Positions 32,269 through 58,856 of a stretch of 64,000 nucleotides of DNA are shown here, piece by piece. Below the pieces are notes generated by a model. That model was not told the origin of the DNA and did no database searches. It was given only the letters and a program-made list of their open reading frames with translations. The DNA lies in assembly GCA_020356025.1 (NCBI GenBank), contig CP070630.1, forward strand, positions 1,729,027 through 1,793,026, given 5' to 3'. The DNA comes from Dehalococcoidia bacterium. GTDB lineage: Bacteria; Chloroflexota; Dehalococcoidia; SM23-28-2. Position 1 is the first letter of the stretch. The number at the start of each line of letters is the position of its first letter. The position numbers were made by a program, and so were the translations under genes.

Positions 32269-33510
32269 ATGAGCAAGATAGCATCCGCCCTCAGACAATT
32301 GCCCCTGCTGCGCGTAGCTTTGCCGATCATCACGGCTTTTGCCCTGGCAGCCCTACTAGCGCTTGGCTGCGGCGGCGGACAAGACGAGGGCCCATCTGTC
32401 ACCGCCACCATCAGCCCCACCACTCCCGTTGCCACCGCCACCCCCGTTGCCACCGCCGTCCCCACTGTTGCCCCCCAGGATCTGACCGAACGCGGCCCCT
32501 TCGCGGTGGGCGTGTCAACCCTGACTCTCGTGGACAAGTCGCGGCCCACCGACGCCAACGGCTCCTATCCCGGCGCCGACACCCGCACTCTGGTCACCGA
32601 GGTGTGGTACCCGGCGGAGGGCAGAACGCAGCCGGTTGAGATTCGCGATGCCCCTCTGGACTCTTCGCAGGCACCCTACCCTCTGATCGTCTTCAGCCAT
32701 GGCTACACGGGCGTCCGCCGACAGTCGGTTTCCTCCACAACTCATCTGGCCAGTCACGGCTATATCGTCATCTCGCCTGACTACCCGCTGAGCAACGGCT
32801 CAGCACCCGGCGGCCCAAGGTCGGGCGATGTCCTCAACCAGCCCGGTGACGTGAGCTTCCTGATCGATAGCTTCCTGAGTTTCGCCGATGAGCCGGGCAA
32901 TCAATTCGAGGGCGCCATAGACGAAACAGCCATCGGCCTCACTGGTCACTCCCTGGGCGGACTGACGACGATACTGGCCACTTTCGGCCCCCTGGCCGAC
33001 CCCCGCGTCGAAGCGGCCCTGCCTCTTGCCGCACCGGCGTGTTTGGTCGGCAGCCGCACCTACGAGGACTCTGACACCCCTCTTCTCGTCGTCGGCGGCA
33101 GCGATGACCAGTTGGTGGCCTTCGAGAGCGTTCGTCAGGCTTACGACGCCGCCAGCCCACCGAAGTACCTGCTGACGCTTCTGGGCGGCAACCACTTGCG
33201 GTTTGCCGACGCCGATTTGGAGGACTTTCCCCCAGGCACACTGGCGAGCGCTGGCGGAGAGACCTTCCTCAAGGATGGCGCACGAATCATGCAAGCGACT
33301 CGTGCCGACCCCGCCGCTTGCCCGGAGGCTGAAGCCTCTACCCAGGATCTGCCCGGAGAGCGTCAGCGCGAGCTAGTCCGCCTCTTCGGTACCGCCTTCT
33401 TCGACTACTATCTGAAGGGAGACGAAGGCACCAGCCACGTCCTGACCACAGAGTTCGCCCAGACCATCCCCGAAGCGGAACTGGATCTCGAGCAGGCCCC
33501 CACCGAGTGA
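32269..33510 (+). CDS. Secreted alpha/beta-hydrolase lipoprotein (lipase or PAF-acetylhydrolase-like)
   Basis: Signal plus lipobox LLALGCGGG. Pro/Thr/Val-rich linker. Nucleophile elbow GLTGHSLGG. Confidence 0.7.
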   Translation: MSKIASALRQLPLLRVALPIITAFALAALLALGCGGGQDEGPSVTATISPTTPVATATPVATAVPTVAPQDLTERGPFAVGVSTLTLVDKSRPTDANGSYPGADTRTLVTEVWYPAEGRTQPVEIRDAPLDSSQAPYPLIVFSHGYTGVRRQSVSSTTHLASHGYIVISPDYPLSNGSAPGGPRSGDVLNQPGDVSFLIDSFLSFADEPGNQFEGAIDETAIGLTGHSLGGLTTILATFGPLADPRVEAALPLAAPACLVGSRTYEDSDTPLLVVGGSDDQLVAFESVRQAYDAASPPKYLLTLLGGNHLRFADADLEDFPPGTLASAGGETFLKDGARIMQATRADPAACPEAEASTQDLPGERQRELVRLFGTAFFDYYLKGDEGTSHVLTTEFAQTIPEAELDLEQAPTE

Positions 33511-34485: not shown

Positions 34486-35316
34486 CTAGTGCATCACTAT
34501 CCCGCCGTCGACGTTGATGGCCTGGCCGGTCATGTAGTCCGACTGGTCGGAGGCCAGGAAGGCCACCAGGTTGGCTACGTCGTCGGTCGTCTCCAGCTTG
34601 CCCAGGGGGATCTTCTCGATCTCCTCATTGACGATCTCGTCGTAGGACACGCCCCGGAAGTTCGCCTCCAGCTCCCAGCCCCATCGCTGAAGCTCGGTGT
34701 CTACCTGTCCCGGGCAGACGGCGTTCACCTGGATCCCGCTCGCCGCCAGCTCGAAAGCCAGGACCCTCGTCAAGCCCAGAACGGCCGCCTTGGCCGCGCA
34801 GTAGGCCGCCAGCGCCGGAGCACGCCCCTTGCCGGCGATGGAGGAGATGTTGATGATCTTCCCCCCTTCCCGGCGGGCGATCATCGTCCGCGCCACCCGC
34901 TGCGAGCAGAGGAATGTCCCTGTGGCGTTGATGGCCAGTGTTTTGTTCCAGGCCGCCTCCTCAATCCACAGCACGGGCATCGGGCCCACGACGCCACCGG
35001 CGTTGTTCACCAGAATGTCGATGTGGCCGAAGGCGTCCATGGTCTGGGCCACCATCTCGTCCACCGCCTGGCTGTCCGTCACGTCCACCTTCAGCGGCAG
35101 TCCGCGCACGCCCAGCGCGCTGATTTCGTCAGCCGTGCTCTTCAGGCCATCCCACATGCCCAGGCCGTAGTCCGGGAACTCCTCGAACTCACGGCAGATG
35201 TCGGCCACCGCCACGTCGGCCCCCTCCCGCGCCAGCCTGAGCGCTATGGCCCGACCGATGCCCAGCTTGCGGCCGGCCCCCGTAACGATAGCTACCTTTC
35301 CCTTCAGGTCATACAT
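34486..35316 (-). CDS. Short-chain dehydrogenase/reductase (SDR)
   Basis: KGKVAIVTGAGRKLGIGRAIALRLA (TGxxxGxG), NNAG, YxxxK motifs. Confidence 0.85.
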   Translation of the reverse strand: MYDLKGKVAIVTGAGRKLGIGRAIALRLAREGADVAVADICREFEEFPDYGLGMWDGLKSTADEISALGVRGLPLKVDVTDSQAVDEMVAQTMDAFGHIDILVNNAGGVVGPMPVLWIEEAAWNKTLAINATGTFLCSQRVARTMIARREGGKIINISSIAGKGRAPALAAYCAAKAAVLGLTRVLAFELAASGIQVNAVCPGQVDTELQRWGWELEANFRGVSYDEIVNEEIEKIPLGKLETTDDVANLVAFLASDQSDYMTGQAINVDGGIVMH

Positions 35317-38149: not shown

Positions 38150-38829
38150 CAGCTCACCGTCCTTGCTCGCGACCAGGGCGAGAGCAGCCGCTCCAAGCCC
38201 GCCAACGTCACGTCGATAACGACGGCCAGCGCCACCGAGAGCACTGACCCGACGATGAGCGGCGTATAGAAGTCACGCCGCAGCCCGTCCAGAATGAACA
38301 GCCCCAGGCCGCCCTGCCCGATGATCGAGGTGACGGTGACAAGACCAACCACCGTGACGGTGGCGATACGTAAGCCCGCTACGATGACCGGAAGGGCCAG
38401 CGGCAACTCGATCTCCACGAAAAGGCGCGCACGGCTGTAGCCCATCCCGACCGCCGCCTCCCGGACCGCCGGCGACACGCCGTCGATGCCGGCCACGATA
38501 TTGCGCACCAGGATGAGGAGCGTATAGCTCACCAGCCCGATCTCAGCCGTGAGCGTGCTCAGGCCCGTATAGGGAACCAGGAAAGCAAACAGCGCTAAGC
38601 TCGGAATAGTGTAGAGGACGCCCGTCACCCAGGTGACGGGACCGTAAGTACGCCGGAACCGCAGGGCCACTATCGAAAGCCCCATGGCTATGGCGAACCC
38701 TATGCCTACGGCGATGCCCGTGAGGATGAAATGTTCGACCGTTTGAGTGCGGATCTCGTCCAAGTGGTCCCATATCCAACCCCAGCGGATGAGGGGCTCA
38801 GTGGCGAGAAACGTACGCTGTGGCATCAC
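38149..38829 (-). CDS. ABC transporter permease (OpuCB/OpuCD-type)
   Basis: Paralog of the adjacent permease. Overlapping start/stop. Confidence 0.8.
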   Translation of the reverse strand: MMPQRTFLATEPLIRWGWIWDHLDEIRTQTVEHFILTGIAVGIGFAIAMGLSIVALRFRRTYGPVTWVTGVLYTIPSLALFAFLVPYTGLSTLTAEIGLVSYTLLILVRNIVAGIDGVSPAVREAAVGMGYSRARLFVEIELPLALPVIVAGLRIATVTVVGLVTVTSIIGQGGLGLFILDGLRRDFYTPLIVGSVLSVALAVVIDVTLAGLERLLSPWSRARTVS

Positions 38830-39929
38830 GGGACAAGGTTCTCCGAGATGCGGTTGAGGGTGAGCATGCCAGCGTAACGCTCGCCGTCGTAGACCACCGC
38901 CACCTGGTTATGAGAGGTCACGATAGCATCCAGCGCCTCCCGCAACGTGTTGTCTGCGGTTACGCGCACCAAGAACGGCCGGCCGGCAAGGTCGCCCATC
39001 TTTCGCCCTGGCTCAAGCTCAGACTCCCACACCCATCCCTGCAGTTTCCCATCGCGAACGATTGCCACCCAGTTCACGCCCTCGCGCGCCATCACCTCCT
39101 TCGCCTCGGCAGAGCCGGCGTCTGACGACACCGTCGGCCCGTCCTCCAGCGACACGTCTCGAACAGCAATCAGAGAAAGCCGCCGCAGCCCTCGTTCCTG
39201 GCCGAGGAACTCCTCAACGAAAGCGTTGGCTGGTTCCCTCAGCACTTCTTCGGGCGACGCGTATTGTCGCAACGCGCCACCCACGTCCAGGATGGCAACC
39301 TGATCGCCAAGTTTGATCGCCTCGTCTATGTCGTGGGTCACGAAGACGATCGTCTTCTGAAGCTGCGCTTGCAGCGAGCGCAGCTCCTCCTGCAGACGCA
39401 CCCGAACGATCGGGTCCACCGCCGCGAAAGGCTCGTCCATCAGCAGCACCGGCGGGTCCGCCGCCAGCGCCCGGGCTACCCCCACCCGCTGCTGCTGGCC
39501 ACCGGAGAGCTCGGCGGGGTAGCGGTCGTACATCTCCGACTCCAATCCAACCATCTCAACCAGCTCGTCGACGCGCTTCCTCGTGCGACGCCGATCCCAT
39601 CCCAGCAGTTTGGGCACAGTGGCGATGTTCTCGGCCACCGTGCGGTGAGGAAAGAGTCCCACCTGCTGGATGACATAGCCGATGCCTCGGCGCAGCGCAT
39701 GGGGATCCATCCCCTGGATGTCGCGGCCTCCCACCTCGATCCGCCCGGAGGTGGGCTCGATGATCCGATTGATCATCTTGAGGATCGTCGTCTTCCCACA
39801 ACCTGATGGCCCGACGAGAGCCGTCACCTGCCCCGCGGACATCTCCATAGAGAGATCCTCCACCGCGGGAGCGGATGCGCCGGCATACCGCTTGGTGACG
39901 TGATCGAGTCGAATGCTCGCTTCGCTCAT
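38826..39929 (-). CDS. Osmoprotectant ABC transporter ATP-binding protein with C-terminal tandem CBS domains (OpuCA/ProV type)
   Basis: Walker [24 protein letters not shown], Walker B LLMDEPFAAVD. C-terminal CBS pair. Confidence 0.85.
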   Translation of the reverse strand: MSEASIRLDHVTKRYAGASAPAVEDLSMEMSAGQVTALVGPSGCGKTTILKMINRIIEPTSGRIEVGGRDIQGMDPHALRRGIGYVIQQVGLFPHRTVAENIATVPKLLGWDRRRTRKRVDELVEMVGLESEMYDRYPAELSGGQQQRVGVARALAADPPVLLMDEPFAAVDPIVRVRLQEELRSLQAQLQKTIVFVTHDIDEAIKLGDQVAILDVGGALRQYASPEEVLREPANAFVEEFLGQERGLRRLSLIAVRDVSLEDGPTVSSDAGSAEAKEVMAREGVNWVAIVRDGKLQGWVWESELEPGRKMGDLAGRPFLVRVTADNTLREALDAIVTSHNQVAVVYDGERYAGMLTLNRISENLVP

Positions 39930-40045: not shown

Positions 40046-40054
40046 TGATATAAT
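40046..40054 (+). promoter_or_regulatory. Extended -10 promoter element TGaTATAAT upstream of the AGPS-like operon
   Basis: gTGaTATAAT matches the TGnTATAAT consensus exactly, about 70 nt upstream of ATG 40124. No good -35, as expected for extended -10 promoters. Confidence 0.5.
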
Positions 40055-40123
40055 TCAGCGCGGCGGCGGTCGGCCTCGCTACCATGCAAGTGGCGAGACC
40101 GCCGCCTCAGACAAGGCTAGTCG

Positions 40124-41779
40124 ATGGCAACCAAATGGTGGGGCTGGGGAGAAGAGCAGCGAACCTTCCCCCTGCCGCATGGGGAGCAGTTCTGGGCCCA
40201 CGTCAGCAGCTGGCTGGGCGAGCTTGGCGTCGGCCAGCGTATCGAATCCCTCGCCGAGGTCGCCTTGCCTCCCTCTCGCCTCGAATCGAAGGCCCTGGAC
40301 GCCCTGCGCGCCGCCTCAGGCGCTGACTCCCTCTCCACCGACAGCGTTGACAGGGCCGTCCACAGCCTCGGCAAGAGCTATTGCGACCTCGTACGCATCC
40401 GCCGGGGGGAGATCCCCCATGCCACCGATGCCGTCGTCTATCCGGAGACGGAGGAGCAGGTGGCCGCGCTGCTGAACGCAGCAGCCGAGCGAGGCATCGC
40501 CGTTATTCCCTTCGGCGGCGGCACCTCCGTGCTCGGAGGCGTCGAACCCCTTGGATCCAAGCCGACTGTTACTCTGGACCTGCAGCGAATGAACCGTCTG
40601 CTGCAGCTGGACCCACTCGCGGCGACCGCCACCCTCGAGGCTGGGGTTCTCGGCCCCTCTCTCGAGCAACAGCTCAACGCCAACGGCTTCACCCTCGGCC
40701 ACTTCCCTCAATCCTTCGAGTACTCCAGCCTTGGTGGCTGGATCGCCACCCGCTCAGCAGGCCAGAACTCCACCCTCTACGGCAAGATCGAGCACAGAGT
40801 GGAGAGCCTGCGCATGGCCTTCCCAGGCGGCACCATCGCCACCCCAGCCGTCCCTGCCGCCGCCGCTGGCCCCGACCTCAACCAGATGATCGCCGGCTCG
40901 GAGGGCGTACTGGGGGTGATCACTCAGGCGACCGTTCGCCTGGCACCCCTTCCCAAGCGCTGCGACTACCGTGGCTACGTCTTCCCCTCCTTCCAGGCTG
41001 GCGTCGAAGCCTCTCGCGAACTGATGCAGTCGGGCCTGACGCCATCCGTCCTGCGTCTCTCCGACGAGACCGAGACCGAGGTCAGCCTGGCCATGAGACC
41101 CCCGCCTCGCGCACTGATGGCCGCCGCCGAAGGGCTGTACCTCGCCCTGCGCAGGATCAGCTTCGAGGGCACCGCTTTGATGATCGTGGGCTTCGATGGA
41201 GACGAGGACCAGGTACGCTCCGACTGGCGCCGCGCCCACCGCATCCTCCGCCGCCACGAGGGGTCATCCCTGGGACGCCGCCCGGGGCGAGCCTGGGAGC
41301 GCGCCCGCTTCGAGCACCCCTACCTGAGAGACCTCCTCCTCGATCACGCTATCATGGTGGACACCCTCGAGACGGCTGTCACCTGGGACCGCTACCTGGC
41401 ACTCTATGGCTCCGTGCGTGATGCGATGGCCAAGGCCATGGACGGCCGCGGGTTAGTGATGGCCCATCTCTCACACGCCTACAGCGATGGCGCCTCCCTC
41501 TACTACACTTTCCTGGCCCGCCAGGCGGCGGGCCAGGAAATGGAGCAGTGGCAGCAGGTCAAGGTCGCTGCGACCGACGCCATCATCGCCGCCGGTGGCG
41601 CCCTCAGTCACCACCACGGCATCGGCAGCGACCATCAGCCCTGGATGTCCCGATACCTGGGGCCGGCCGGCGTTCGGACACTGGCCGCCCTTAAGCAGAC
41701 CTTCGACCCCCACGGCCTCATGAACCCGGGCAAACTGATGCCCACAAGCGAGGATGACAGCGATGTTAGCGATGTTTAG
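40124..41779 (+). CDS. FAD-linked oxidase of the alkyldihydroxyacetonephosphate synthase (AGPS) type
   Basis: N-terminal MATKWWGWGEE resembles the AGPS WNGWG motif. FAD_binding_4 (VVYPETEEQVAALLNAAAERGIAVIPFGGGTSVLGG). C-terminal FAD-oxidase_C with HHHGIG. Confidence 0.7.
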   Translation: MATKWWGWGEEQRTFPLPHGEQFWAHVSSWLGELGVGQRIESLAEVALPPSRLESKALDALRAASGADSLSTDSVDRAVHSLGKSYCDLVRIRRGEIPHATDAVVYPETEEQVAALLNAAAERGIAVIPFGGGTSVLGGVEPLGSKPTVTLDLQRMNRLLQLDPLAATATLEAGVLGPSLEQQLNANGFTLGHFPQSFEYSSLGGWIATRSAGQNSTLYGKIEHRVESLRMAFPGGTIATPAVPAAAAGPDLNQMIAGSEGVLGVITQATVRLAPLPKRCDYRGYVFPSFQAGVEASRELMQSGLTPSVLRLSDETETEVSLAMRPPPRALMAAAEGLYLALRRISFEGTALMIVGFDGDEDQVRSDWRRAHRILRRHEGSSLGRRPGRAWERARFEHPYLRDLLLDHAIMVDTLETAVTWDRYLALYGSVRDAMAKAMDGRGLVMAHLSHAYSDGASLYYTFLARQAAGQEMEQWQQVKVAATDAIIAAGGALSHHHGIGSDHQPWMSRYLGPAGVRTLAALKQTFDPHGLMNPGKLMPTSEDDSDVSDV

Positions 41780-43505
41780 GAAGGCAACGCCCACCGGCAC
41801 ATTCTCTTACCGCACCCGCACCGGCTATCTCGATCGCGTCCAGCAGCAGACCTTCGACCTGGTCATCATCGGCGGCGGCATCACCGGCGCCGGCATCGCC
41901 CGCGACGCCGCCATGCGCGGCCTATCCGTGGCCCTCCTCGAAAAAGGCGACTTCGCCGCAGGCACCAGCAGTAGGTCCTCCAAGATGATCCACGGCGGCC
42001 TGCGCTACCTCAGGCATTTCCAGATTCGCCTGGTCAAGGAGTCTCTGCGAGAGCGTGAGGTGCTGCTGAAGATCGCTCCCCACCTAGTTCATCCCTTCCC
42101 TTACATCCTGCCGGTCTACGAGGGCGGCCCCAACAGCCGCCTCCAGCTAAAGGTGGGCCTAGTCGCCTACGACCTGCTGGCCGGCTCCCGCCGCGTCGAG
42201 CATCACACGATGCTCTCCGCAGACGAAGTGCTGAGGATGGAGCCAACCTTGCGCCGAGACCGGCTAAGAGGCGGCTTCCGCTACTTCGACTGTCTGGTAG
42301 ACGACGCTCGCCTGACCCTCGCCACCATTCGCTCCGCGGCCAGCCACGGCGCCGCCGTTATCAGCTACGCCGAGGTCACCGACCTCGAGCGAGACGAGGA
42401 TCGGGTGACAGGCGTCCGTTTCAGCGACCGCCTGGACGGTCGCACCGGCACCATTAGCGCTCGTGTCGTGGTCAACGCCACCGGCCCCTGGACGGACGAA
42501 CTGCGGGCCAAGGCCGAGGCGCCCCCCATGCTCCGCCCAACGAAAGGGATCCATCTAACGCTCCCTCACTCCAGCCTCCCGTTGTCCTCCATCATCGCCT
42601 TCCCTGCCATCGACGATCGCCTCATGTTCGCCGTTCCCCTGGGGAACTGTACCTATGTAGGAACCACTGATACAGACTACACCGCCAGCCCCGACCAAGC
42701 GAGAGCCGACGCCGCCGACGTGCAGTACCTTCTGGATTCGCTGAACGCTACCTTCCAGGGGCTCCAAGCGTCGCCATCGGACGTCACCTCCACCTGGGCA
42801 GGCGTGCGCCCTCTGGTGTCCGAGGAGGGTGCTCCCTCAGACCTGCCCAGGGACTACGAGATCCAGTTCGAGCCCCCAGGGCTCGTCTCCATCACCGGCG
42901 GCAAGCTCACCACCTACCGGGCTATGGCCGAAGAACTAGTGAACCTCGTCGTGCAGCGGGAAGGAAAGCGCTTAGGCTGGTCGGCGGTGCCCTGCCGCAC
43001 GGCTGAGAGTCCCCTTCCCGGCGGCCACCTGGATGCATTCGAACGCTTCGCCAAGGCCACGGCCTCCGCCCTGGAGCAAAGCTGGGCTCTCCCGCGCCCG
43101 GCCGCCGAGCGCCTGCTGCGCACATATGGAACGGACTACGTGAAGGTGCTGGGATACGCCCTGTCAGATCGGCGGCTCCTCAGCCCCCTGCTACCCGACG
43201 GCTCAGTGCTGAGAGTGGAGGCCATCTACGCCACCGCCGAGGAGATGGCGCTCACCCTCGAGGATTTCATGGCCCGCCGCACGGATTTGATGCTCTTCGA
43301 CCACAACCACGGCCTGAGTGCCGCGAGCGAGGCGACTCGCCTCATGGCAAGAGTCCTGAGATGGGATTGGCGCCAGCGCCAGCAGCAGGTCCAACGCTAC
43401 CGCGAGGCCGTGGCCGCCATGACCACCTTCGCCGCCGCCGTCGAGGAACCAGCCACCGCGGAACCAGCCGCGGAGGAGCCAGCCGCAGCCGAAGAGCCAG
43501 CCTGA
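41754..43505 (+). CDS. glpD: FAD-dependent glycerol-3-phosphate dehydrogenase (GlpD/GlpA family)
   Basis: FDLVIIGGGITGAGIARDAAMRGLSVALLEKGDFAAGTSSRSSKMIHGGLRYL is the canonical GlpD N-terminus. Overlaps upstream gene by 26 nt. Confidence 0.85.
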   Translation: MTAMLAMFRKATPTGTFSYRTRTGYLDRVQQQTFDLVIIGGGITGAGIARDAAMRGLSVALLEKGDFAAGTSSRSSKMIHGGLRYLRHFQIRLVKESLREREVLLKIAPHLVHPFPYILPVYEGGPNSRLQLKVGLVAYDLLAGSRRVEHHTMLSADEVLRMEPTLRRDRLRGGFRYFDCLVDDARLTLATIRSAASHGAAVISYAEVTDLERDEDRVTGVRFSDRLDGRTGTISARVVVNATGPWTDELRAKAEAPPMLRPTKGIHLTLPHSSLPLSSIIAFPAIDDRLMFAVPLGNCTYVGTTDTDYTASPDQARADAADVQYLLDSLNATFQGLQASPSDVTSTWAGVRPLVSEEGAPSDLPRDYEIQFEPPGLVSITGGKLTTYRAMAEELVNLVVQREGKRLGWSAVPCRTAESPLPGGHLDAFERFAKATASALEQSWALPRPAAERLLRTYGTDYVKVLGYALSDRRLLSPLLPDGSVLRVEAIYATAEEMALTLEDFMARRTDLMLFDHNHGLSAASEATRLMARVLRWDWRQRQQQVQRYREAVAAMTTFAAAVEEPATAEPAAEEPAAAEEPA

Positions 43506-44422
43506 TGCCAGACCTCCTCCTCATCGTCAACCCCCACTCCGCCAATGGCTCCACCGGCCGCCGCTGGCCGGCCATCGAGGCCAAGCTGCGCTCGCTCCTT
43601 CCTCCCTTCGATGTCGCCTTCACGGAGCGCCATGGCCACGCCACCGCCATCGCCCGTGAGGCCGCCGAGCGATACGGCTGCATCGCCCTGGTGGGCGGCG
43701 ACGGCACCGTCAACGAGGTCGCCAACGGCCTCATCGCCGACGATCGCCCCCTTCGCGCTGACCTGACCCTGGGGGTCATCTGCCGCGGCACCGGATCGGA
43801 CTTCATCCGCACCCTGGGTATCCCCCGCGATCTGGAAGGAGCAGCCGAGAGGCTGGCCATGGGGAACGTGCGAGAGATCGACATCGGCAAGATCCGCTAC
43901 CGCAGCCCGGACGGAAGCGAGGCCGTTCGCTACTTCCTCAACGAGGCAGATATCGGCATGGGCGCCGTCGTCTCCGACCGAGTCAACCGCAGCTCCAAGA
44001 GACTGGGCGGACGCCTCTCCTTCCTGCGAGCCACCCTGATCACCGCCCTCGGCTACCGTCCTCACCGCGTGTCTCTCTCCCTCGACGGTGCTCCCGCCCA
44101 GCAGATCGTTCTGGCCTCTGCCTGGTTCGCCAACGGCCAGTACTCCGGCGGCGGCATCCGCGACGCCCCCCGCGCTCGCCTGGACGACGGCCTTCTAGAT
44201 GTGGTGTGTGTCGGCCACCTGAGCCACCTGCAGAAGCTCACCTTCTTTCCCAAGCTACGCAGCGGCGCCTTCGTCGACCTACCCCAGGTCACCTACCTTA
44301 CCGCCCGCCGAATCGAGACCGAATCCCCAGAGCCGGTGCGCGTTGCCACCGAAGGCGAGGCCATCGGCACCCTGCCCGCCACCTTCGAGATCATCAGCGA
44401 GCGCCTGAAGGTTATCGCCTAG
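43505..44422 (+). CDS. Diacylglycerol-kinase catalytic-domain lipid kinase (YegS/BmrU/DagK family)
   Basis: LLIVNPHSANG...ALVGGDGTVNEVANGL (DAGK_cat GGDGT motif). ATG overlaps glpD stop (TGATG). Confidence 0.8.
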   Translation: MPDLLLIVNPHSANGSTGRRWPAIEAKLRSLLPPFDVAFTERHGHATAIAREAAERYGCIALVGGDGTVNEVANGLIADDRPLRADLTLGVICRGTGSDFIRTLGIPRDLEGAAERLAMGNVREIDIGKIRYRSPDGSEAVRYFLNEADIGMGAVVSDRVNRSSKRLGGRLSFLRATLITALGYRPHRVSLSLDGAPAQQIVLASAWFANGQYSGGGIRDAPRARLDDGLLDVVCVGHLSHLQKLTFFPKLRSGAFVDLPQVTYLTARRIETESPEPVRVATEGEAIGTLPATFEIISERLKVIA

Positions 44423-44440
44423 CCCTCGCCTTGGCTTGCC

Positions 44441-45073
44441 ATGGTAGAGGAGAGACGGAGAGTCCGAGCAATGGCCCGCATGTCCATCTTCGAACGCTGG
44501 CTGGTCAAGAGCCCCATCCGCGCCTGGCTCCAGCGACGCGAGGTGCGCGCCTTCGCCCGCTGGGCCGCCCTTCCCCCTGAGGCCTCTGTCCTGGATATGG
44601 GCTGCGGCCCCGGCGTCTCCACCGCCCTCATCCTGGACACGCTGCGCCCCCAGCGTCTGGCTGCCTTCGATTTCGACCCGTCGATGGTCGATCTCGCCCG
44701 TCGGCGCCTGGCCCGCCACCTCCACGAACACGATCTCGACCTGACGGTTGCCGACGCCACCCGTATGCCCTATGGGGACGACCTCTTCGACGCCGTCTTC
44801 GAGTCAGGCGTCGTCCACCACATCCCGGACTGGCGGGCCACTCTGCGCGAGGTTGGCCGCGTCCTCAAGCCTGGCGGCCACTTCTGCTTCGCCGAGCCCT
44901 CGCGTGGTCGCTTGCGCCGGGGCATGTACCGGATCCTACCCCACGCCGTCGAGTCGATGTTCGCGCCCGAGGAGTGGCGAGCGACTCTCGCCGAGGCCGG
45001 TCTTGAGGTCGAGGAGCCGCTGCACCGCCTGCCCCTGTGGGACATCTGCGGCGTCGCGACGAAACGGGGCTAG
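44441..45073 (+). CDS. Class I SAM-dependent methyltransferase
   Basis: VLDMGCGPGVSTALILD (motif I). LKPGGHFCFAEP motif. 19 nt after lipid-kinase gene. Confidence 0.75.
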   Translation: MVEERRRVRAMARMSIFERWLVKSPIRAWLQRREVRAFARWAALPPEASVLDMGCGPGVSTALILDTLRPQRLAAFDFDPSMVDLARRRLARHLHEHDLDLTVADATRMPYGDDLFDAVFESGVVHHIPDWRATLREVGRVLKPGGHFCFAEPSRGRLRRGMYRILPHAVESMFAPEEWRATLAEAGLEVEEPLHRLPLWDICGVATKRG

Positions 45074-45124: not shown

Positions 45125-47011
45125 CTACGGCGCGATGGCCATGCTGCAGCTCACCGGCACCGTGACCAGGATCAGGAACGCATCGTACTCGTCCAGCGGG
45201 CCCATGTTGGAGATGTCGGGTCTGCCGGGGAAGTAGCGCTCCCAGCCTCCACCCACCAGCCGATAGGCGGCGGCGTAGCTGCTCTCCGCGCAGCCGAACA
45301 CGTCCTCAGGTGGCATGCCGTCGGCGCCCGTCCAGCCATCGTTCTGCCAGCCCGCGCCCCAGTCGAGCGTGCGTTCAGTGCCTAGGGGATCGGCCACCTC
45401 CATCTCACAGGTGATGTCGCCGGTAATGAGGATGAGGAAGGCATCGTGCTGCTCCAGGTCGGTCATGTTGGAGATGTCGGGCCTGCCAGGGAAATAGCGC
45501 TCCCAGCCTCCACTCACCAGGCGATAGGCCGCCGCATAGCTGCCGTCGGCGCAGGCGAACGCCTCCTCGGGAGTGGATGTGCCGGTCCAGGTGGCGTTCT
45601 GCCAGCCCGGACTCCAGTGGAGGGTGCGGGTGGCCTCAGGGGTCGGCGTTGGCGTAGGCGATGGCGTGGGCGTGGGCGACGGCGTGGGCGATGGGGTAGG
45701 CGTCGGCTCGGGCACAGCCACAGGTTCCGAGAACTCGGACGTGTTGCCGTCGGAGTCGGTGGCGGTGGCGGTGATGTTGGGCCCCTCAGGCAAGCCGGGG
45801 AGGGTGCTCCAGTTGCCGTCGTCGTCGGCTTTGAAAGAGCCCTCGTACACCCTGCCCTCGTCCTCGTCGTCGGAGAAGAGGTCGATGCTACAGTTGGGGC
45901 AGGCGGTGCCCATCACTGAGCCGAAGCCGGTGATCACCGGCGGCGGCAGCTCTGTGTTGCCGCCGTCCACCAAGCCGATGCCCTTGTCGCCGTTGGAGTG
46001 GATGGAGTTGCCGCGGATGGTGTTGCCGGTGGTGGTGGCGTCCTCCACCTGCACACCATCTTCGGTGTTGAAGGCGATGAGGTTACCCTCATCGGTCCCC
46101 GTTCCGCCAATGAGGTTGTCGTGGGCGCCACTGTGTATGTATACGCCGACGTCGTTGGGAAGGGCGGCGGTGCCCGAAGCCTTGGTGCCGATGTAGTTGC
46201 CGATAATGGAGTTGCCGGTGGCTTCCCACATTTTCACGCCCCAACGGTTGCCGGAGATGAGATTGTCGGTGACGGTGTTGTTGTCAGCCCATCCGATGAC
46301 CACTCCCGCATCGTTATGCTCGCCCCATTGCCCGCTGCGGTCGGTGCCGATGCGGTTCCCGATCACAGTGTTATCCTCGGTTCCGCTGCCCTCGATCATC
46401 ACGCCGACAGCGCTGTCAGCGAGGACATTCCAGTCGCCCACTGTGTTGTTCTGAGCGCCACCGAGGATGAGCACGGCGGCGTTGCAGTCGCGGATCTCCA
46501 GCCCTTTGATGGTGTTGTTGTCGGAAGTAATGACGAAGCAGCCGGTGCCAATTAGATCCCACCCCTCGCCCTCGATGATGACCCTGGCCCCCGAGCCATC
46601 GATCGCGTCATTGCCGCTGTGCAGACTGTAGTAGGGCGGCTCAAGGTCGATGGGGACAGGCCAAAACGTCCATGGCGAGAAGACAGTCGTGTCGAAAACG
46701 ATGGTGTCCGCGGAGGCCGCGCCGGGCTCCTGTCCGCCGATGCCCTTGCAGATGCCGGGAAGAGGTTCCCATAACGCACCTGAGACCTGGTTGCACTCCT
46801 GCGACCACAGCTCGCCGAGCTCAAGGTCGCCCGTGGCCAGCATCACGGCCTCGCGCAGGGTCAACACGTCGTCGCGGGTGTTGTTGTGCTCCGTGCTGTC
46901 AACAGTGATGATAACGTCCGGGCTGGCCTGGGCATCCGGCCGGTTGAGCGCCAGGAACATCGAGGCTGCTACGGCTGTAACGAGCAGGATAGCGAGCGCA
47001 AACCACTTCAT
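45125..47011 (-). CDS. Secreted right-handed parallel beta-helix repeat protein with Pro/Thr linker and two tandem C-terminal ~95-aa domains
   Basis: AAAGGAG SD then MKWFALAILLVTAVAASMFLALN signal. Repetitive N.I.GN..G beta-helix turns. PTPTPSPTPSPTPTPSPTPTPTP linker. Duplicated TLxWxxGWQNxxWTG...AAAYRLVxGGWERYFPGRPDISNM domain. ORF open to 47041. Confidence 0.7.
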   Translation of the reverse strand: MKWFALAILLVTAVAASMFLALNRPDAQASPDVIITVDSTEHNNTRDDVLTLREAVMLATGDLELGELWSQECNQVSGALWEPLPGICKGIGGQEPGAASADTIVFDTTVFSPWTFWPVPIDLEPPYYSLHSGNDAIDGSGARVIIEGEGWDLIGTGCFVITSDNNTIKGLEIRDCNAAVLILGGAQNNTVGDWNVLADSAVGVMIEGSGTEDNTVIGNRIGTDRSGQWGEHNDAGVVIGWADNNTVTDNLISGNRWGVKMWEATGNSIIGNYIGTKASGTAALPNDVGVYIHSGAHDNLIGGTGTDEGNLIAFNTEDGVQVEDATTTGNTIRGNSIHSNGDKGIGLVDGGNTELPPPVITGFGSVMGTACPNCSIDLFSDDEDEGRVYEGSFKADDDGNWSTLPGLPEGPNITATATDSDGNTSEFSEPVAVPEPTPTPSPTPSPTPTPSPTPTPTPEATRTLHWSPGWQNATWTGTSTPEEAFACADGSYAAAYRLVSGGWERYFPGRPDISNMTDLEQHDAFLILITGDITCEMEVADPLGTERTLDWGAGWQNDGWTGADGMPPEDVFGCAESSYAAAYRLVGGGWERYFPGRPDISNMGPLDEYDAFLILVTVPVSCSMAIAP

Positions 47012-47226
47012 AGGTTCACTCCTTTTCCTCGGTTCGCCCATCGCGAAGGGATCCTACGAACGCGTATGGGTTGCGCCATCATATCTGGCTGCGGCATGTG
47101 TGTCAACGGTAGGCAAGCGCCCGCTCTGCTGAACGCCGCCGCTTGCTCCTAAGGCGCCCAGATCGTAATCTTATGCTGAGGCGGGCCGAGCGGCCCGCCG
47201 AACACTGCCCAGGAGAACGCGACAAC

Positions 47227-48429
47227 ATGGCCGAAACAGCCCTGCACGGGGTCAAAGTCCTCGAGTACTGCCAGATGATCAGCGGCCCCTATTGCGGCAA
47301 GCTCCTGGCCGACCTGGGCGCCGAGGTCATCAAGGTCGAGCAGCCGCCCGCCGGCGACCCCGCCCGCACAAGAGGCCCCTTCCCCAACGACGTCCCTCAC
47401 CCCGCGAAGAGCGGCCTCTTCCTCTACCTGAACACCAACAAGCTGGGTATCACCCTCAACCCGCGCACGACCACCGGCCGCCAGCTCTTCCAAAGCCTGG
47501 CCGAGGAGGCCGATGTCCTCATCGAGGACCGCCCGCCCGGCGAGATGGCAGACCTCGGCCTGGACTACCCCGCCCTCAGCGCCGTCAATCCCCACCTCAT
47601 CGTCACCTCCATAACCCCTTTCGGCCAGACGGGCCCCTACCGCGACTACAAGAGCTATCATCTCAACCTCTATCACGCCAGCGGCCACTCCTCCTTCTTC
47701 TACGTCGCTCCCAAAGACAAGCGTAACGAATCGCCCGTAGTGGCTGGAGGCGAGGTGGGTGACTACGACGGCGGCCTGACCGCCGCCATAGCCACCCTGG
47801 CCGCCCTCTTCTCGCGCCTGACCACCGGCCAGGGCCAGTACATCGATATCTCCAAGTTCGAGGCGCTCCTCGCCCTCGAGCGAGTGGTGGTCGCCCGCTT
47901 CGCCAACACGCCGGAGCCACCCGCCTGGCCTGGCATGGTGGGAGGGCTCGTGCCCAGCAAGGATGAACACGTGGTCATCACCGCCGTCCAGAATCACCAG
48001 TGGCAGGGCCTGATGGAGCTCATGGGCAACCCCGCCTGGTCCCAGGAGGAGAACTGCCGCGATGAGACCACCCGCTCCCAGCACCGTGACGAGATCCAGC
48101 CCCTCCTGGAAGAGTGGATGGCCCAGCACCCCAAGGAGGAGCTCTATCACAAAGGGCAGGCCCTCGGCGTCCCCATCGGGCCGGTGCGCACGGCGGCGGA
48201 GATAGCGAACTGGCCGCAGGCGCGTGAGCGCGGCTTCTTCGCCCAGCTCGACCATCCCCAGGCCGGCAGGCTGGAGTACCCCACCGTTGGCTACAAGATG
48301 TCCGAGACCCCCTGGCGGGGCGAGCGAGCCGCTCCCCTCCTCGGCGAGCACAATGAGCACATCTACTGCGGCCGCCTAGGCTACTCGGCGGAGCAACTCA
48401 CCACGATGGCCGCTGATGGAGCCATCTAG
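47227..48429 (+). CDS. Family III CoA-transferase (CaiB/BaiF)
   Basis: GVKVLEYCQMISGPYCGKLLADLGAEVIKVE N-terminal signature. ORF open from 47143. Confidence 0.85.
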   Translation: MAETALHGVKVLEYCQMISGPYCGKLLADLGAEVIKVEQPPAGDPARTRGPFPNDVPHPAKSGLFLYLNTNKLGITLNPRTTTGRQLFQSLAEEADVLIEDRPPGEMADLGLDYPALSAVNPHLIVTSITPFGQTGPYRDYKSYHLNLYHASGHSSFFYVAPKDKRNESPVVAGGEVGDYDGGLTAAIATLAALFSRLTTGQGQYIDISKFEALLALERVVVARFANTPEPPAWPGMVGGLVPSKDEHVVITAVQNHQWQGLMELMGNPAWSQEENCRDETTRSQHRDEIQPLLEEWMAQHPKEELYHKGQALGVPIGPVRTAAEIANWPQARERGFFAQLDHPQAGRLEYPTVGYKMSETPWRGERAAPLLGEHNEHIYCGRLGYSAEQLTTMAADGAI

Positions 48430-48444: not shown

Positions 48445-49656
48445 ATGACGAGAAGACCCCTGGAAGGCGTCAGAATCCTCGACTTCACCTGGGCCTGGGC
48501 CGGGCCCCAGGCCACCCTACTCCTTTCCCTGCTGGGCGCCGAGGTGATCAAGGTGGAGAGCCGCCGTCGCCTCGACCACACCCGCCTCCGCTCCCTGATG
48601 ACAGGGCCGACCATGACCAGCCCCGATCATTCGGTCATCTTCAACGACCTGAACATCGGCAAGCTGAGCCTGACCCTGAACCTCAGCCAGCCCAAAGCAG
48701 TGGAGATAGTGAAGAGGGTTGCCCAGATAAGCGACGTAGTGACCCAGAACATGCGCCCGGGCGTCATGGACAGGCTCGGCCTGGGCTACGACGACCTCAA
48801 GGCGGTCAAGCCTGACATCATCATGCTCTCCTCCTCGGCGGTCGGCGCCACCGGCCCGGAGCGCACCTACGCTGGCTACGCTCCCACCTTTGCCGCCATG
48901 GGCGGTCATGCCTACATCACCGGCCACGCCGATGGCCCTCCCATGCCCCTCAGCGGCGCCGTCGACCTGCGCGTCGGCACCACCTCCGCCTTCGCCATCC
49001 TGGCCGCCCTCTACTATCGAGCACGCACCGGCAAGGGCCAACACATCGACCTGTCCTCCACCGAAGCCATCAGCGCCCTTATCGGGCACACCTTCATGGA
49101 CTACAGCATGAACGGTCGAGTGCAGACCAGAGCCGGAAACCGCGACCACACCATGGCTCCCCACAACTGCTACCCCTGCCTGGGCGACAACAAGTGGGTG
49201 ACCATCGCCGTCGCCTGCGAGGAGGAATGGGGCGCCCTCCACCGCGTGGTGGGCGACAGCCGACTAGAAGAGGAAAGGTTTGCCGACGCCACTAGCCGCT
49301 GGCAGAATCAGGACGCTCTGGATCAGCTCATCGGCGAGTGGACCTCCAACCGCACCCAGGAGGAAGTGACCCAGGCCTTGCAGAAAGTGGGCGTGGCAGC
49401 CATGCCCGTCCTCGATGGGCCGGCGCTCGTCCAGGATGCCCAGCTCCGCGAGCGAGGCGTCCTGCAGTCTCTGGACCACCCGGCCGTCGGCGAGAAGCTG
49501 ACCGTCAACCCGCCGTGGAGGTTCTCGCGAACGCCAGCCGAGATTCGCCGTCCGGGCCCCCTGCTGGGCGAGCACAACCAGTACGTGCTGGGGGAACTTC
49601 TGGGAATGTCCAGCGATGAAATCGAAAAGCTGGTGGCTGAGGAAGTCGTCTACTAG
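48445..49656 (+). CDS. Family III CoA-transferase (CaiB/BaiF), paralog
   Basis: GVRILDFTWAWAGPQATLLLSLLGAEVIKVE. Follows paralog after 15 nt. Confidence 0.85.
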   Translation: MTRRPLEGVRILDFTWAWAGPQATLLLSLLGAEVIKVESRRRLDHTRLRSLMTGPTMTSPDHSVIFNDLNIGKLSLTLNLSQPKAVEIVKRVAQISDVVTQNMRPGVMDRLGLGYDDLKAVKPDIIMLSSSAVGATGPERTYAGYAPTFAAMGGHAYITGHADGPPMPLSGAVDLRVGTTSAFAILAALYYRARTGKGQHIDLSSTEAISALIGHTFMDYSMNGRVQTRAGNRDHTMAPHNCYPCLGDNKWVTIAVACEEEWGALHRVVGDSRLEEERFADATSRWQNQDALDQLIGEWTSNRTQEEVTQALQKVGVAAMPVLDGPALVQDAQLRERGVLQSLDHPAVGEKLTVNPPWRFSRTPAEIRRPGPLLGEHNQYVLGELLGMSSDEIEKLVAEEVVY

Positions 49657-52795: not shown

Positions 52796-52892
52796 GATCT
52801 TGGCTCTTGCCAGGAGGCTCGCGATGCGCAAAAATAGGGTTGCTCTTCACTAAAAGGCTGCGGCGAGTCGCCGCTGAGAAAGGAGCGTGGCG

Positions 52893-54692
52893 ATGGACCT
52901 GGGTGGATACGTTGATCACGTGGCGCGAATCGACCTAACCACCGGCGATATCAAGTATGAAGGCCTCAACGAGGAGAACGTCCGCAAGTACATCGGCGGC
53001 CGTGGTCTCGGCGTCAAGTACGTCTTCGACAACGGTCCAAAGGTCGACCCCTTGTCGCCGGACAACATCATCTGCTTCCTGGTCGGCCCTCTGACCGGCA
53101 CGGATGTTAGCATGAGCGGTCGGATGGCTGTGGTGACCAAATCGCCGCTGACTGGCACCGTCACCGACTCTCACCACGGCGGCTGGTCAGGCGCTCGCCT
53201 GAAGTGGGCTGGCTTCGATGGCCTGATCTTCAAGGGCAAAGCTGAGCAGCCCACCTATGCCTACATCGAGGCAGGCAAGGTCGAACTGAAAGACGCCAGC
53301 GACCTCTGGGGCAAGGGTGCCCACGAAACCATCAAAATCCTCCAGAAGCGCCACGGCAAGGACGTGAGCGTGGTGACCCTCGGCCAGGCCGGCGAGAACC
53401 TGGTGCGCTACGCCTGCTGGATGAACGAGAACGACCGCGCCTCTGGCCGCGGCGGCACCGGTGCCGTAGGCGGCAGCAAGAACCTGAAGGCCCTCGTCAT
53501 CAAGGCGGCCAAGAAGTTGCCCAAGCCCAAGGATCGGGAAGCCTTCAAGCAGGCCCACAAGGATGCCCTAAAGGCCATCAACGAGAACGACACTCTAGCG
53601 CCCCGGAAGGGTGGATTGTCGGTATACGGCACCAACAGCCTTATGATGGCGGCCAATACCATCGGCGCCCTGCCAGCCAAGAACGCCCAGTTCACCAGCT
53701 TTGAAAACGCCTTCAACATCAGCGGCCACCACATTAAGGAGACCATCCTGGTCGGCGACCCCACCTGTCACGCCTGCCCCGTCGCCTGCAAGAAGGAGGT
53801 CGAGACCGAGCCCGGCAAGTTCCATGTACGCATGGAGAGCGTCGAGTACGAGTCCGCCTGGGCTTTCGGTGCTCAGTGCGACAACGACAATCGCGACTCC
53901 ATTCCCTTCCTCATCGACCTGTGTAACGACTACGGCATCGACACCATCGACATGGGCAACGTGCTGGCCATGACTATGGAAGCCAGCGAGAAGGAGTTGA
54001 TCAGGGAGCGCGTGGGCTGGGGCGACGTCGACAAGATGGTGGAGCTCGTGCACAAGATAGCCAAGCGGGAGGGCATCGGCGACATCTTGGCCAACGGCAT
54101 CGAGCCGGCGGCCAAGGCCTTCGGCGACCCCAGCATTGCCATGTCGGTCAAGGGCCAGGCTATCCCCGCCTACGACCCGCGCGGCATGAAGGGAATGGGA
54201 GTGGGCTACGCCACAAGCAATCGCGGCGCCTGCCACCTCCGAGGCTACACCCCCGCCAGCGAGGTCGTCGGCGTGCCGGAGAAGACCGACCCCCTGGCCT
54301 GGAAAGGCAAGGGCAAGCTGCTCAAGCTCTTCCAGGACTTCCAGGCTCTATCCGACTCCCTCGGCGTCTGCAAGTTCTCCACCTTCGCCGAGAATCCGGA
54401 CCACTACGCCGCCCAGTACGCGGCCGTCGTGGGCGTGCCGATGGACGCCAACGCCATTCTCACCATCGGCGAGCGCATCTACAACCTGGAGCGCCACTAC
54501 AACAACCTGGCCGGTTTCGGTGAAGGCTCCGACACTCTGCCCGCCCGCTTCCTCAACGAACCCTCCCAGAGTGAACCCTCTCAGGGCCACATCTGCGAGC
54601 TGGACCAGATGCTCGAGGAGTACTACGCGGAGCGCGGCTGGGTGAAAGGCGTCGTACCCGAGAAGAAGCTGAAGGCCCTGCAGATCATCTAG
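52893..54692 (+). CDS. aor: Aldehyde:ferredoxin oxidoreductase family (tungsten/molybdopterin AOR)
   Basis: AAGGAG SD 7 nt before ATG 52893. N-terminal DLTTGDIKYEGLNEENVRKYIGGRGLGVKYVF and AOR_N/AOR_C features. Cys motifs for the [4Fe-4S] cluster. Confidence 0.85.
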   Translation: MDLGGYVDHVARIDLTTGDIKYEGLNEENVRKYIGGRGLGVKYVFDNGPKVDPLSPDNIICFLVGPLTGTDVSMSGRMAVVTKSPLTGTVTDSHHGGWSGARLKWAGFDGLIFKGKAEQPTYAYIEAGKVELKDASDLWGKGAHETIKILQKRHGKDVSVVTLGQAGENLVRYACWMNENDRASGRGGTGAVGGSKNLKALVIKAAKKLPKPKDREAFKQAHKDALKAINENDTLAPRKGGLSVYGTNSLMMAANTIGALPAKNAQFTSFENAFNISGHHIKETILVGDPTCHACPVACKKEVETEPGKFHVRMESVEYESAWAFGAQCDNDNRDSIPFLIDLCNDYGIDTIDMGNVLAMTMEASEKELIRERVGWGDVDKMVELVHKIAKREGIGDILANGIEPAAKAFGDPSIAMSVKGQAIPAYDPRGMKGMGVGYATSNRGACHLRGYTPASEVVGVPEKTDPLAWKGKGKLLKLFQDFQALSDSLGVCKFSTFAENPDHYAAQYAAVVGVPMDANAILTIGERIYNLERHYNNLAGFGEGSDTLPARFLNEPSQSEPSQGHICELDQMLEEYYAERGWVKGVVPEKKLKALQII

Positions 54693-57941: not shown

Positions 57942-58121
57942 GCCTCCTTCCCTTGAGGTTCCTGCCTCAGTCGTATCTCCATATATCCCGCCCCTAGCCA
58001 GCTTGTCAACCACCCCGGCCCAGCCCCTTGTGCCACAGATGCTGGGCCAATAAACTTGATTGGGACATCTGTCCGGTCTTTCAGACCGTCAGCACTGCGA
58101 GAGGAGGAGGACATCGCCGCA

Positions 58122-58856
58122 ATGGCCAATCTCATCATCGAGGCCACCGATGTGGTCAAGACCTACGACACCGGCTATTCCGAAGTGCCGGCCCTGAAAG
58201 GCGTCTCCCTCTCGGTCGAGCGCGGCGAGATGGTGGCCATCATGGGCCCTTCCGGCTGCGGCAAGACCACCCTCCTCAACTGCCTCAGCGGCCTCGACGA
58301 CATCGACAGCGGCCGCGTCACCGTCGATGGAACCGACATCAACCGTCTGTCCGACAACGCCAAGACCGAGTACCGCGCCCGCAACATGGGCTTCGTCTTC
58401 CAGGTCTATGACCTCCTGCCCATCCTCTCAGCCGTGGAAAACGTGGAGCTGCCCATGTTGGTCTCGGGCACCCCAGCCAAACGCGCCCGGGAGGCCGCTA
58501 TGCGCGCCCTGGACTTCGTCCATCTCGCCGAGCGCGCCGGCCACAGACCGGCCGAGCTCTCCGGAGGCGAACGCCAGCGAGTGGCCGTCGCCCGTTCCCT
58601 GGTGAACGATCCGGCCATCGTCTGGGCCGACGAGCCCACCGGCGCCCTCGATAGCACCAACGCCGAACAGATCATGAACCTGCTGCGCGAGCTGAACGAA
58701 GCCAGCAGCCAGACCTTTGTTGTAGTCACCCACGACCCCAAGATGGCTGGCTACGCTCAGCGCATCGTCTACATGGTCGATGGCCTGATAGTGGACGAGA
58801 AGCGCACCGGCCACGCCAAGGAGCCCTCCCAGACAGTCCCGGCCGAAGAAGCCTAG
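58122..58856 (+). CDS. ABC transporter ATP-binding protein (MacB/LolD type)
   Basis: Walker [24 protein letters not shown], Walker [15 protein letters not shown] open from 58056. Confidence 0.9.

Follow-up and report, generated by a model that had tools for sequence, protein, structure and literature searches.

A conserved AGPS-GlpD-lipid kinase gene cluster in a Dehalococcoidia genome: a plausible but unproven part in ether-lipid chemistry

What could a bacterium achieve with a homolog of alkyldihydroxyacetonephosphate synthase (AGPS, or ADPS) whose gene overlaps that of a glycerol-3-phosphate (G3P) dehydrogenase and is accompanied by that of a lipid kinase? A four-gene operon with this content lies in the 64,000-nucleotide stretch of contig CP070630.1 of Dehalococcoidia bacterium (assembly GCA_020356025.1, positions 1,729,027 to 1,793,026) that was analysed here and is called the window below. 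A preliminary reading of its sequence, the original prediction, saw in the operon a coherent route to ether-linked glycerolipids, described as uncommon in bacteria. These lipids are environmental biomarkers and central in the "lipid divide" debate; to our knowledge experiments back only three bacterial routes to them: Elb, PlsAR/Ger and, with weak evidence, Agps. The conserved unit of the operon is a set of three genes, AGPS-GlpD-kinase, that is widespread in bacteria, and the first gene codes for a predicted member of the AGPS family. Ether-lipid chemistry is a plausible but unproven role for these genes, as judged from sequence and from a structural model.

Protein sequence analysis led to the functional assignment of gene 1. 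Its product carries the Pfam domains FAD_binding_4 and FAD-oxidase_C (residues 102-239 and 282-538), preceded by about 100 additional N-terminal amino acids. The same two domains are found also in the glycolate oxidase subunit GlcD and in D-lactate dehydrogenase (D-LDH), therefore finer tests were required. A phmmer search of the PDB gave as top match the Dictyostelium ADPS (2uuu; 376 bits, E 2e-111), with guinea-pig AGPS (4bby) at 264 bits, mouse D-LDH at 129 bits and glycolate oxidase at 106 bits. A profile built from 21 homologs of different phyla raised these scores to 520 bits for 2uuu and 393 bits for 4bby, against 190 bits for D-LDH. Amino acid sequence identity amounts to 36% with the Dictyostelium enzyme and to 30% with the guinea-pig one. 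The GlcD model TIGR00387 ranks first in NCBIfam (E=1e-44), yet with 153 bits for a cut-off of 567.9, and NF008408 is hit with 117 bits for a cut-off of 897. The gene 1 product is 100% identical to a protein from a Dehalococcoidia bacterium metagenome-assembled genome (MAG) that bears at NCBI only the label "FAD-binding oxidoreductase"; many of its relatives are labelled alkyldihydroxyacetonephosphate synthase by JGI. A neighbour-joining tree, computed without Myxococcus MXAN_1676, has D-LDH as outgroup at the end of a long branch; all bacterial sequences group together, with the two eukaryotic AGPS as their sister. The phylogenetic check that had been proposed to separate AGPS from GlcD/LDH enzymes places gene 1 with the eukaryotic AGPS, away from D-LDH.

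The residues required for AGPS catalysis are found in the gene 1 product. R352, R447 and Y508 of Dictyostelium ADPS are important for activity, Tyr508 being the candidate base (PMC3509576), and HMMER alignments put them in the columns of R311, R402 and Y460. This mapping is fixed because the substitutions of the PDB mutant chains 4bc7 (R419H) and 4bca (Y578F) deviate from wild type at the matching columns, Arg419 and Tyr578 of Cavia AGPS being the equivalents of Arg352 and Tyr508 of the Dictyostelium protein. An SHHHG loop at positions 495-499 contains the three histidines H496-498. R311, R402, Y460 and H496-498 are invariant across 26 Dehalococcoidia sequences, and the same columns are invariant, H497 excepted, in 21 sequences from six phyla. 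D-LDH carries GEHG in place of the histidine loop and offers no counterparts to the Arg/Arg/Tyr set.

Predicted structural similarity to AGPS extends to most of the protein. An AlphaFold2 model built from the alignment of the 26 Dehalococcoidia sequences (pLDDT 81, pTM 0.84) gives in Foldseek 37 first matches that are all AGPS/ADPS chains (E 1e-45 to 1e-40, TMq 0.76-0.88), with alignments of 551-574 columns that cover nearly the whole 551-residue model. D-LDH comes after them (E 1e-29, TMq 0.66-0.71), with an E-value about 16 orders of magnitude worse. The N-terminal WGWG motif, in which the original prediction saw a lid motif and an AGPS signature, is a property of the bacterial family, with a putative lid role: W5, W8 and G9 are invariant or almost so in the 21 cross-phylum and 26 Dehalococcoidia sequences. 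All PDB alignments of gene 1, that of the family profile included, begin C-terminal to the motif, the N-terminal 71 amino acids alone give chance matches in the PDB and no AGPS, and the model is of low confidence at residues 1-7. The mammalian AGPS motif, which we take to be KWNGWGY, could not be aligned to the bacterial one. Because sequence scores, catalytic residues, tree and predicted fold agree, we assign gene 1 to the AGPS family and not to the GlcD/D-LDH enzymes, with AGPS-type chemistry as its predicted activity. The AGPS-like character proposed originally is thus borne out; clustering with GlcD/LDH and a lack of AGPS active-site residues, named beforehand as grounds to give it up, were looked for and not found.

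The four genes of the operon (Table 1) are co-directional and enclosed at both ends by genes of the opposite strand. The overlap is 26 nt between genes 1 and 2 and 1 nt between genes 2 and 3, where the kinase ATG and the GlpD TGA have an A in common (TGATG). This layout is as first described except for the spacing of the methyltransferase gene: its ATG (44441) lies 18 nt, and not 19 nt, after the kinase stop codon TAG (44420-44422). Upstream, the proposed extended -10 element TGATATAAT was confirmed 70 nt 5' of the first ATG, within a divergent intergenic region of 194 nt. The string TGNTATAAT occurs only once across both strands of the window, for 0.13 occurrences expected by chance. A consensus promoter scan found no complete -35/-10 pair and no -35 matching TGATATAAT, a terminator scan yielded a single antisense candidate at chance level, and an Rfam scan of the window gave zero matches, thus no riboswitch or leader was detected. 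The arrangement goes beyond chance, since the AGPS-GlpD order recurs in six of six other Dehalococcoidia contigs and in several phyla. The 26-nt and 1-nt overlaps combined with the conserved synteny argue for functional coupling of the three first genes, and a translationally coupled operon, composed of this core and an attached methyltransferase gene, is the best explanation for the arrangement.

Table 1. Position of the operon genes, of the upstream promoter-like element and of the flanking genes in the window
Feature	Position	Strand	Remarks
Extended -10 element TGATATAAT	40046-40054	+	read from the sequence; putative promoter role
Gene 1, AGPS-family FAD enzyme (predicted)	40124-41779	+	551 aa, starts MATKWWGWGEE
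Gene 2, GlpD, FAD-dependent glycerol-3-phosphate dehydrogenase	41754-43505	+	583 aa
Gene 3, soluble YegS/Rv2252/BmrU-type lipid kinase	43505-44422	+	305 aa
Gene 4, class I S-adenosylmethionine (SAM)-dependent methyltransferase	44441-45073	+	210 aa (200 aa if start at 44471)
OpuA-type ABC ATPase, 5' flank of the operon	38826-39929	opposite	
NosD/beta-helix protein, 3' flank of the operon	45125-47041	opposite	

Gene 2 codes for an ordinary-looking GlpD, as had been proposed. Its product has the DAO and DAO_C Pfam domains, exceeds the cut-offs of the NCBIfam equivalog models NF008899 (378 bits for 360) and NF009906 (361 bits for 352) and aligns over its full length with Bacillus halodurans GlpD (3da1, 357 bits), including the stretches GTSSRSSK-IHGGLRYL, KGIHL, WAGVRPL and GGKLTTYR. 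GlpO (2rgh) and E. coli GlpD (2qcu) follow in the PDB with 327 and 249 bits. The kinase assignment of gene 3 holds equally: its product combines DAGK_cat and YegS_C domains and scores 148 bits with TIGR00147, the family of YegS/Rv2252/BmrU lipid kinases (cut-off 118.65), while remaining far under the cut-offs of the equivalog models NF008882 and NF009874. PDB matches are a BmrU/DAG-kinase-like protein (102 bits), DgkB (78 bits) and also YegS, and ortholog lengths of 303-307 aa support the chosen start codon. The motif-2 KGxE(hydrophobic)LP was put forward as criterion for bona fide diacylglycerol (DAG) kinases of the DgkB type (PMC11962490). It is found neither in the window kinase nor in any of 23 AGPS-linked kinases, the mycobacterial ones included; since orthologs of Rv2252, reported to be DAG kinases, also do not have it, the motif is uninformative on the kinase substrate and was dropped as a predictor. 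Gene 4 codes for a generic SAM-dependent methyltransferase (Methyltransf_11/25/31/23/12), whose best NCBIfam hit, the DVU_1556 family, reaches 66 bits for a cut-off of 155; no NCBIfam model is matched at cut-off. Its start codon could be the ATG at 44471, because its only ortholog, in the 90%-identical contig L081, has 200 aa.

Synteny was inspected in six other Dehalococcoidia contigs (L081 and L083-L087; 58-90% identity, flanks of +/-10 kb) and, by tblastn on which the counts below rest, in 80 AGPS-homolog loci from species-representative genomes. AGPS is followed by GlpD, overlapping or abutting, in all six Dehalococcoidia contigs, five of which also encode the kinase. A methyltransferase gene 3' of the kinase is found only in L081 (90% identity) and not in L083-L087 (58-66%), and the gene has no tblastn match at any of the 80 loci. 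A methyltransferase in the L086 region has in common with gene 4 only the SAM-binding core, a resemblance comparable to that of an unrelated methyltransferase of the window. Gene 4, presented originally as part of the locus, was therefore rejected as fourth member of the module and is best seen as a lineage-specific addition.

The three remaining genes form a unit of wide distribution. GlpD adjoins the AGPS homolog in 34 of the 80 loci, which belong to Chloroflexota, Blastocatellia, Chitinophagaceae, Acidimicrobiia, Mycobacteriales and Propionibacteriales. It lies directly 3' and on the same strand in 13 loci, from Chloroflexia, Anaerolineales, Ktedonobacterales, Ardenticatenaceae, Blastocatellia, Chitinophagaceae and Acidimicrobiaceae, together with one MAG labelled Eubacteriales and one labelled archaeal. 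In 21 others it is divergent and 5' of AGPS (Mycobacterium, Nocardia, Hoyosella, Nocardioidaceae and other Actinomycetota). At 23 loci the kinase is encoded as well, never without GlpD, and the GlpD-linked loci are scattered over deep bacterial branches of the tree. The cluster is not rare: the trio occurs in many bacterial groups and matches the mycobacterial glpD1/Rv2251/Rv2252 region. Two individual loci call for a comment. A "Conexivisphaerales archaeon" MAG (L004, DATKKG010000052.1, 8001-12261 of an 84-kb contig) carries the full trio with 47%, 43% and 39% identity, to be explained either by wrong binning or by horizontal acquisition of the genes by an archaeon. A 4.6-kb contig of an "Acidobacteriota bacterium" MAG (L001, JAIVWR010000112.1), with AGPS and GlpD 93% and 89% identical to those of the window, probably stems from Dehalococcoidia and was binned wrongly.

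The family has another conserved lipid context, in about 40 loci of Thermoleophilia/Solirubrobacterales (e.g. L006, L034, L064), which form one large GlpD- and kinase-free clade in the tree. There a gene for an SRPBCC (Polyketide_cyc2) lipid-binding protein precedes the AGPS homolog, and a 4HBT thioesterase, a CDP-alcohol phosphatidyltransferase and a WS/DGAT wax-ester synthase, an enzyme that uses fatty alcohols, are encoded a few genes away. Family-wide, the gene context consistently points to glycerolipid and fatty-alcohol metabolism. FabH and FabF/Kas-type ketoacyl synthase genes, recognized by Pfam, are found about 5-7 kb 3' of the AGPS homolog in L035, L043 and L060 (Chloroflexia/Anaerolineales). 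The ORF family to which such FabH/FabF-type genes belong (F16) is present also upstream in Mycobacterium L053, L056 and L077, consistent with the FAS-II operon beside Rv2249c-Rv2252.

How these enzymes might act together can be formulated as a working model, to which we give an even chance: the trio would make 1-O-alkyl-dihydroxyacetone phosphate (alkyl-DHAP) for alkyl glycerolipids, with acyltransferase, alcohol supply and reductase encoded elsewhere. GlpD would oxidize sn-glycerol-3-phosphate to DHAP at the membrane. The AGPS-like enzyme would take up the ester 1-acyl-DHAP produced by the external acyltransferase; Tyr460 would deprotonate C1, the enolate would add to N5 of FAD with departure of the fatty acid, and a long-chain alcohol would attack the flavin adduct to yield 1-O-alkyl-DHAP. 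A further reductase and PlsC-type acylation would then lead to an alkyl-acyl glycerophospholipid, and the kinase would send neutral (alkyl/acyl)glycerols back to the phosphorylated pool. The gene layout, the four family assignments, the AGPS catalytic set with its predicted fold and the occurrence of the trio across phyla are the observations from which this scheme starts; its substrates, direction of flux, product and all steps outside the operon are what we infer. AGPS-type chemistry on a C1-substituted DHAP is suggested because the catalytic apparatus is intact. Through its close and ancient association with GlpD the enzyme is linked to the G3P/DHAP node, and through the soluble lipid kinase to neutral glycerolipids. 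We regard as unlikely the variant in which the trio is a self-contained bacterial ether-lipid module, independent of fatty-acyl reductase (FAR) and GNPAT. In its lyso-lipid version the kinase would phosphorylate a monoacyl- or alkylglycerol, the GlpD paralog would oxidize C2 to give acyl- or alkyl-DHAP, and AGPS would carry out the exchange; in its catabolic version the module would achieve an oxygen-independent cleavage of 1-O-alkyl glycerol ethers.

Several observations weigh against synthesis of ether lipids by this operon. The Pfam scan of about 55 window genes detected no FAR (NAD_binding_4/Sterile), no PlsC/GNPAT-type (DHAP/G3P) acyltransferase and no evident alkyl-DHAP reductase. None of the three was found within +/-10 kb in the six Dehalococcoidia contigs or in the flanks of the loci examined in other phyla. 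The route drawn in the original prediction is thus incomplete at the locus, and the search it suggested for an acyltransferase and a fatty-acyl reductase came back empty for the 64-kb window and for the flanks of the six related contigs. Its rationale that GlpD supplies DHAP is also weak: DHAP is a central metabolite, so that a dedicated GlpD is not obviously required for synthesis, and the gene 2 product appears canonical, with no detectable specialization, because it resembles Bacillus GlpD as much as it does AGPS-linked GlpDs from other phyla (31-43%). Two contigs have a gene for a glycerophosphodiester phosphodiesterase (GDPD) in the vicinity of the trio (L084, 2327-3001; L085, 14415-15242), a proximity that hints at catabolism of glycerophosphodiesters and G3P at least as well as at synthesis. 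Myxococcus, the sole bacterium whose AGPS has genetic support, carries in the AGPS operon a FAR-GNPAT fusion that the Dehalococcoidia operon does not have. The mycobacterial flavoprotein is 529 aa long in M. tuberculosis CDC1551 and in M. bovis, and a microsatellite frameshift splits the H37Rv copy (PMC1501019); the protein is therefore dispensable in H37Rv. The organism is an uncultured MAG, and our literature search retrieved no lipid data for Dehalococcoidia and no report of ether lipids for Dehalococcoidia or mycobacteria. It also retrieved no paper on the AGPS-GlpD-kinase cluster as such, nor on the consistent absence of FAR/GNPAT beside it.

Two further genes near the operon deserve mention. 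An alpha/beta-hydrolase encoded 7 kb 5' of the operon (32269-33510, + strand) gives a partial match to PAF-acetylhydrolase-II (46 bits, cut-off 20), and a 414-aa gene is kept at the equivalent place in L081. Although PAF belongs to the ether lipids, the bacterial members of this Pfam family are mostly lipases and esterases; for that reason no ether-lipid link is claimed for the hydrolase. None is claimed either for the SDR gene at 34486-35316, in place of which L081 has a 2-hydroxyacid dehydrogenase.

The working model has to be weighed against other readings of the same genes. The GlpD-linked bacterial clade may have kept the AGPS fold and catalytic set for a different substrate derived from DHAP or G3P, without formation of a long-chain ether lipid; the operon would then be a general unit of glycerophosphate and glycerolipid turnover. 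This is somewhat improbable in our view, even though identity to characterized AGPS reaches only 30-36%, the sampled bacterial sequences group apart from the two eukaryotic enzymes in the tree, the partner genes resemble those of no characterized AGPS pathway, the literature on the host groups is without ether lipids, and the NCBI annotation does not go beyond an FAD-binding oxidoreductase. Every residue known to matter in ADPS catalysis is nevertheless invariant, the predicted structure superposes over its full length, N-terminal region included (TM up to 0.88), and family neighbourhoods elsewhere are rich in fatty-alcohol and lipid genes. A still smaller chance is given to salvage or catabolism of 1-O-alkyl (or 1-acyl) glycerols, which would use the same chemistry for the opposite physiological role. 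The kinase would make 1-alkyl-G3P from alkylglycerol, the GlpD-type enzyme would oxidize C2 to give alkyl-DHAP, and the AGPS-type enzyme would expel the fatty alcohol by way of a flavin adduct; water or a fatty acid would be the acceptor, leaving DHAP or acyl-DHAP, and the ether would be cleaved without oxygen. Kinase, dehydrogenase and AGPS alone would compose a complete linear pathway with no step missing, and this completeness would explain both retention of the trio and why FAR/GNPAT are never adjacent. Hydrolysis of the AGPS adduct without alcohol is known from the classical literature, and the GDPD genes of L084 and L085 and the PAF-acetylhydrolase-II-like protein of the window would fit such a role. 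In the ping-pong mechanism of AGPS (PMC3509576), the enzyme-bound DHAP adduct could in principle be resolved by nucleophiles other than the alcohol. Against salvage, however, stand the GlpD, which has all canonical GlpD/GlpO motifs and no sign of accepting a 1-substituted G3P, and the alkoxide, a far harder leaving group than a carboxylate; we know of no demonstrated case of net reversal of AGPS.

Two other readings deserve hardly any credence. Gene 1 as a 2-hydroxy-acid dehydrogenase of the GlcD/D-LDH type could serve with GlpD, for example, in a methylglyoxal bypass leading from G3P through DHAP, methylglyoxal and D-lactate to pyruvate. The pairing would be metabolically coherent, and the two shared Pfam domains and the first rank of TIGR00387 (E=1e-44) agree with it, but NCBIfam scores far below cut-off, the 129 and 106 bits of D-LDH and glycolate oxidase against 376 for ADPS, HHHG in place of GEHG, the presence of the ADPS Arg/Arg/Tyr set and the much better AGPS fold match speak against it, and this reading is effectively refuted. 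It is similarly far-fetched that the four genes are fortuitously adjacent without composing a functional unit. The methyltransferase is indeed not conserved and neither a terminator nor a full promoter was predicted, but the coding regions overlap behind a single 5' -10 element, the trio is kept across phyla, and the orthologous cluster is co-regulated in M. bovis BCG (PMC4564863).

The operon bears on the way in which ether-lipid capacity is deduced from genomes. MAG surveys, also of Chloroflexota (PMC11868695), count Agps homologs as such capacity without biochemical validation beyond Myxococcus. In Chloroflexota, Actinomycetota (including Mycobacterium), Acidobacteriota and Bacteroidota, an Agps homolog with an intact catalytic set is coupled to GlpD and a kinase and never to FAR/GNPAT, which cautions against equating a lone Agps match with "makes plasmalogens". 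The hypotheses on the trio are testable in carriers that can be cultured, like M. smegmatis, Nocardia and Chloroflexia. A new route of ether-lipid synthesis or degradation, if true, would provide a function for the conserved mycobacterial Rv2251/glpD1/Rv2252 cluster.

Other genes of the window are also of note. A Tat-signal molybdopterin oxidoreductase (15764-12573, - strand; Molybdop_Fe4S4, Molybdopterin and Molydop_binding domains) is interrupted by a single in-frame TGA (15161-15159) in the motif ...LEHQARI*HSATVAGLGPTYGRGAMTNDW, the selenocysteine position of FdnG/FdhA-type formate dehydrogenases. A hairpin begins at the UGA; its stability is unexceptional (-29.8 kcal/mol, z -1.5). Neighbouring ORFs code for a Fer4_11 subunit (11701-12537), an NrfD-type membrane subunit (10556-11704), an FdhE-like protein (9656-10501), DsrE (15783-16151), an Se/S-carrier (5963-6502) and a YedE-like Sulf_transp protein (6510-7919), which fit the formate dehydrogenase/selenocysteine reading. 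Just 3' of the locus are two tandem paralogs of family III CoA-transferases (47143-48429 and 48445-49656, + strand), kept in L081. Together with two Amidase-family genes (16274-17893, + strand; 56531-58159, - strand), an aldehyde:ferredoxin oxidoreductase (52887-54692) and an HpaB-type hydroxylase (30613-32067), they suggest a versatile catabolism of organic acids and aromatic compounds.

Comparison with known systems sets the operon among several relatives. GlcD, D-LDH and D-2-hydroxyglutarate dehydrogenase, FAD oxidases of the VAO type, have the same Pfam pair and a homologous fold, but score much lower and have neither the catalytic residues of AGPS nor the N-terminal extension of gene 1. 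Eukaryotic AGPS/ADPS (2uuu, 4bby) share with its product the two FAD domains, an N-terminal extension, the catalytic Arg/Arg/Tyr and the HHH loop. They are peroxisomal, unlike the Dehalococcoidia protein, whose gene sits with those of GlpD and a kinase and has no GNPAT or FAR nearby. The Agps homolog of Myxococcus (MXAN_1676) is likewise encoded in an operon, where its partners are a FAR-GNPAT fusion and an epimerase/dehydratase family protein instead of GlpD and a kinase, and is genetically implicated in ether-lipid synthesis (bioRxiv 10.1101/2025.10.10.681575; PMC13159169). Agps homologs from Chloroflexota and many other MAGs were already interpreted as ether-lipid capacity (PMC11868695; PMC13159169); their presence in Chloroflexota MAGs is thus known, as are the genes of the trio in mycobacterial genomes sequenced long ago.

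A parallel in gene content is the mycobacterial cluster Rv2249c (glpD1), Rv2250c (TetR), Rv2250A-Rv2251 (flavoprotein) and Rv2252 (DAG kinase), in which the same three protein families are adjacent. In the loci of Mycobacterium, Nocardia and Hoyosella (L017, L037, L046-L048 and others), whose Rv numbers are assigned from published gene order and not from an alignment to H37Rv, the AGPS homolog has 42-45% identity to gene 1, with the kinase directly 3' and GlpD 5'. Mycobacteriales have a divergent glpD and a TetR gene in between, whereas the Dehalococcoidia genes all run in one direction, overlap and include no regulator gene. Two copies of glpD are known in M. tuberculosis (PMC4866775), and DAG-kinase activity was reported for Rv2252 (PMC3229680). 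In M. bovis BCG, glpD1, the Rv2250c regulator, the Rv2251 flavoprotein and the Rv2252 diacylglycerol kinase are upregulated together (PMC4564863).

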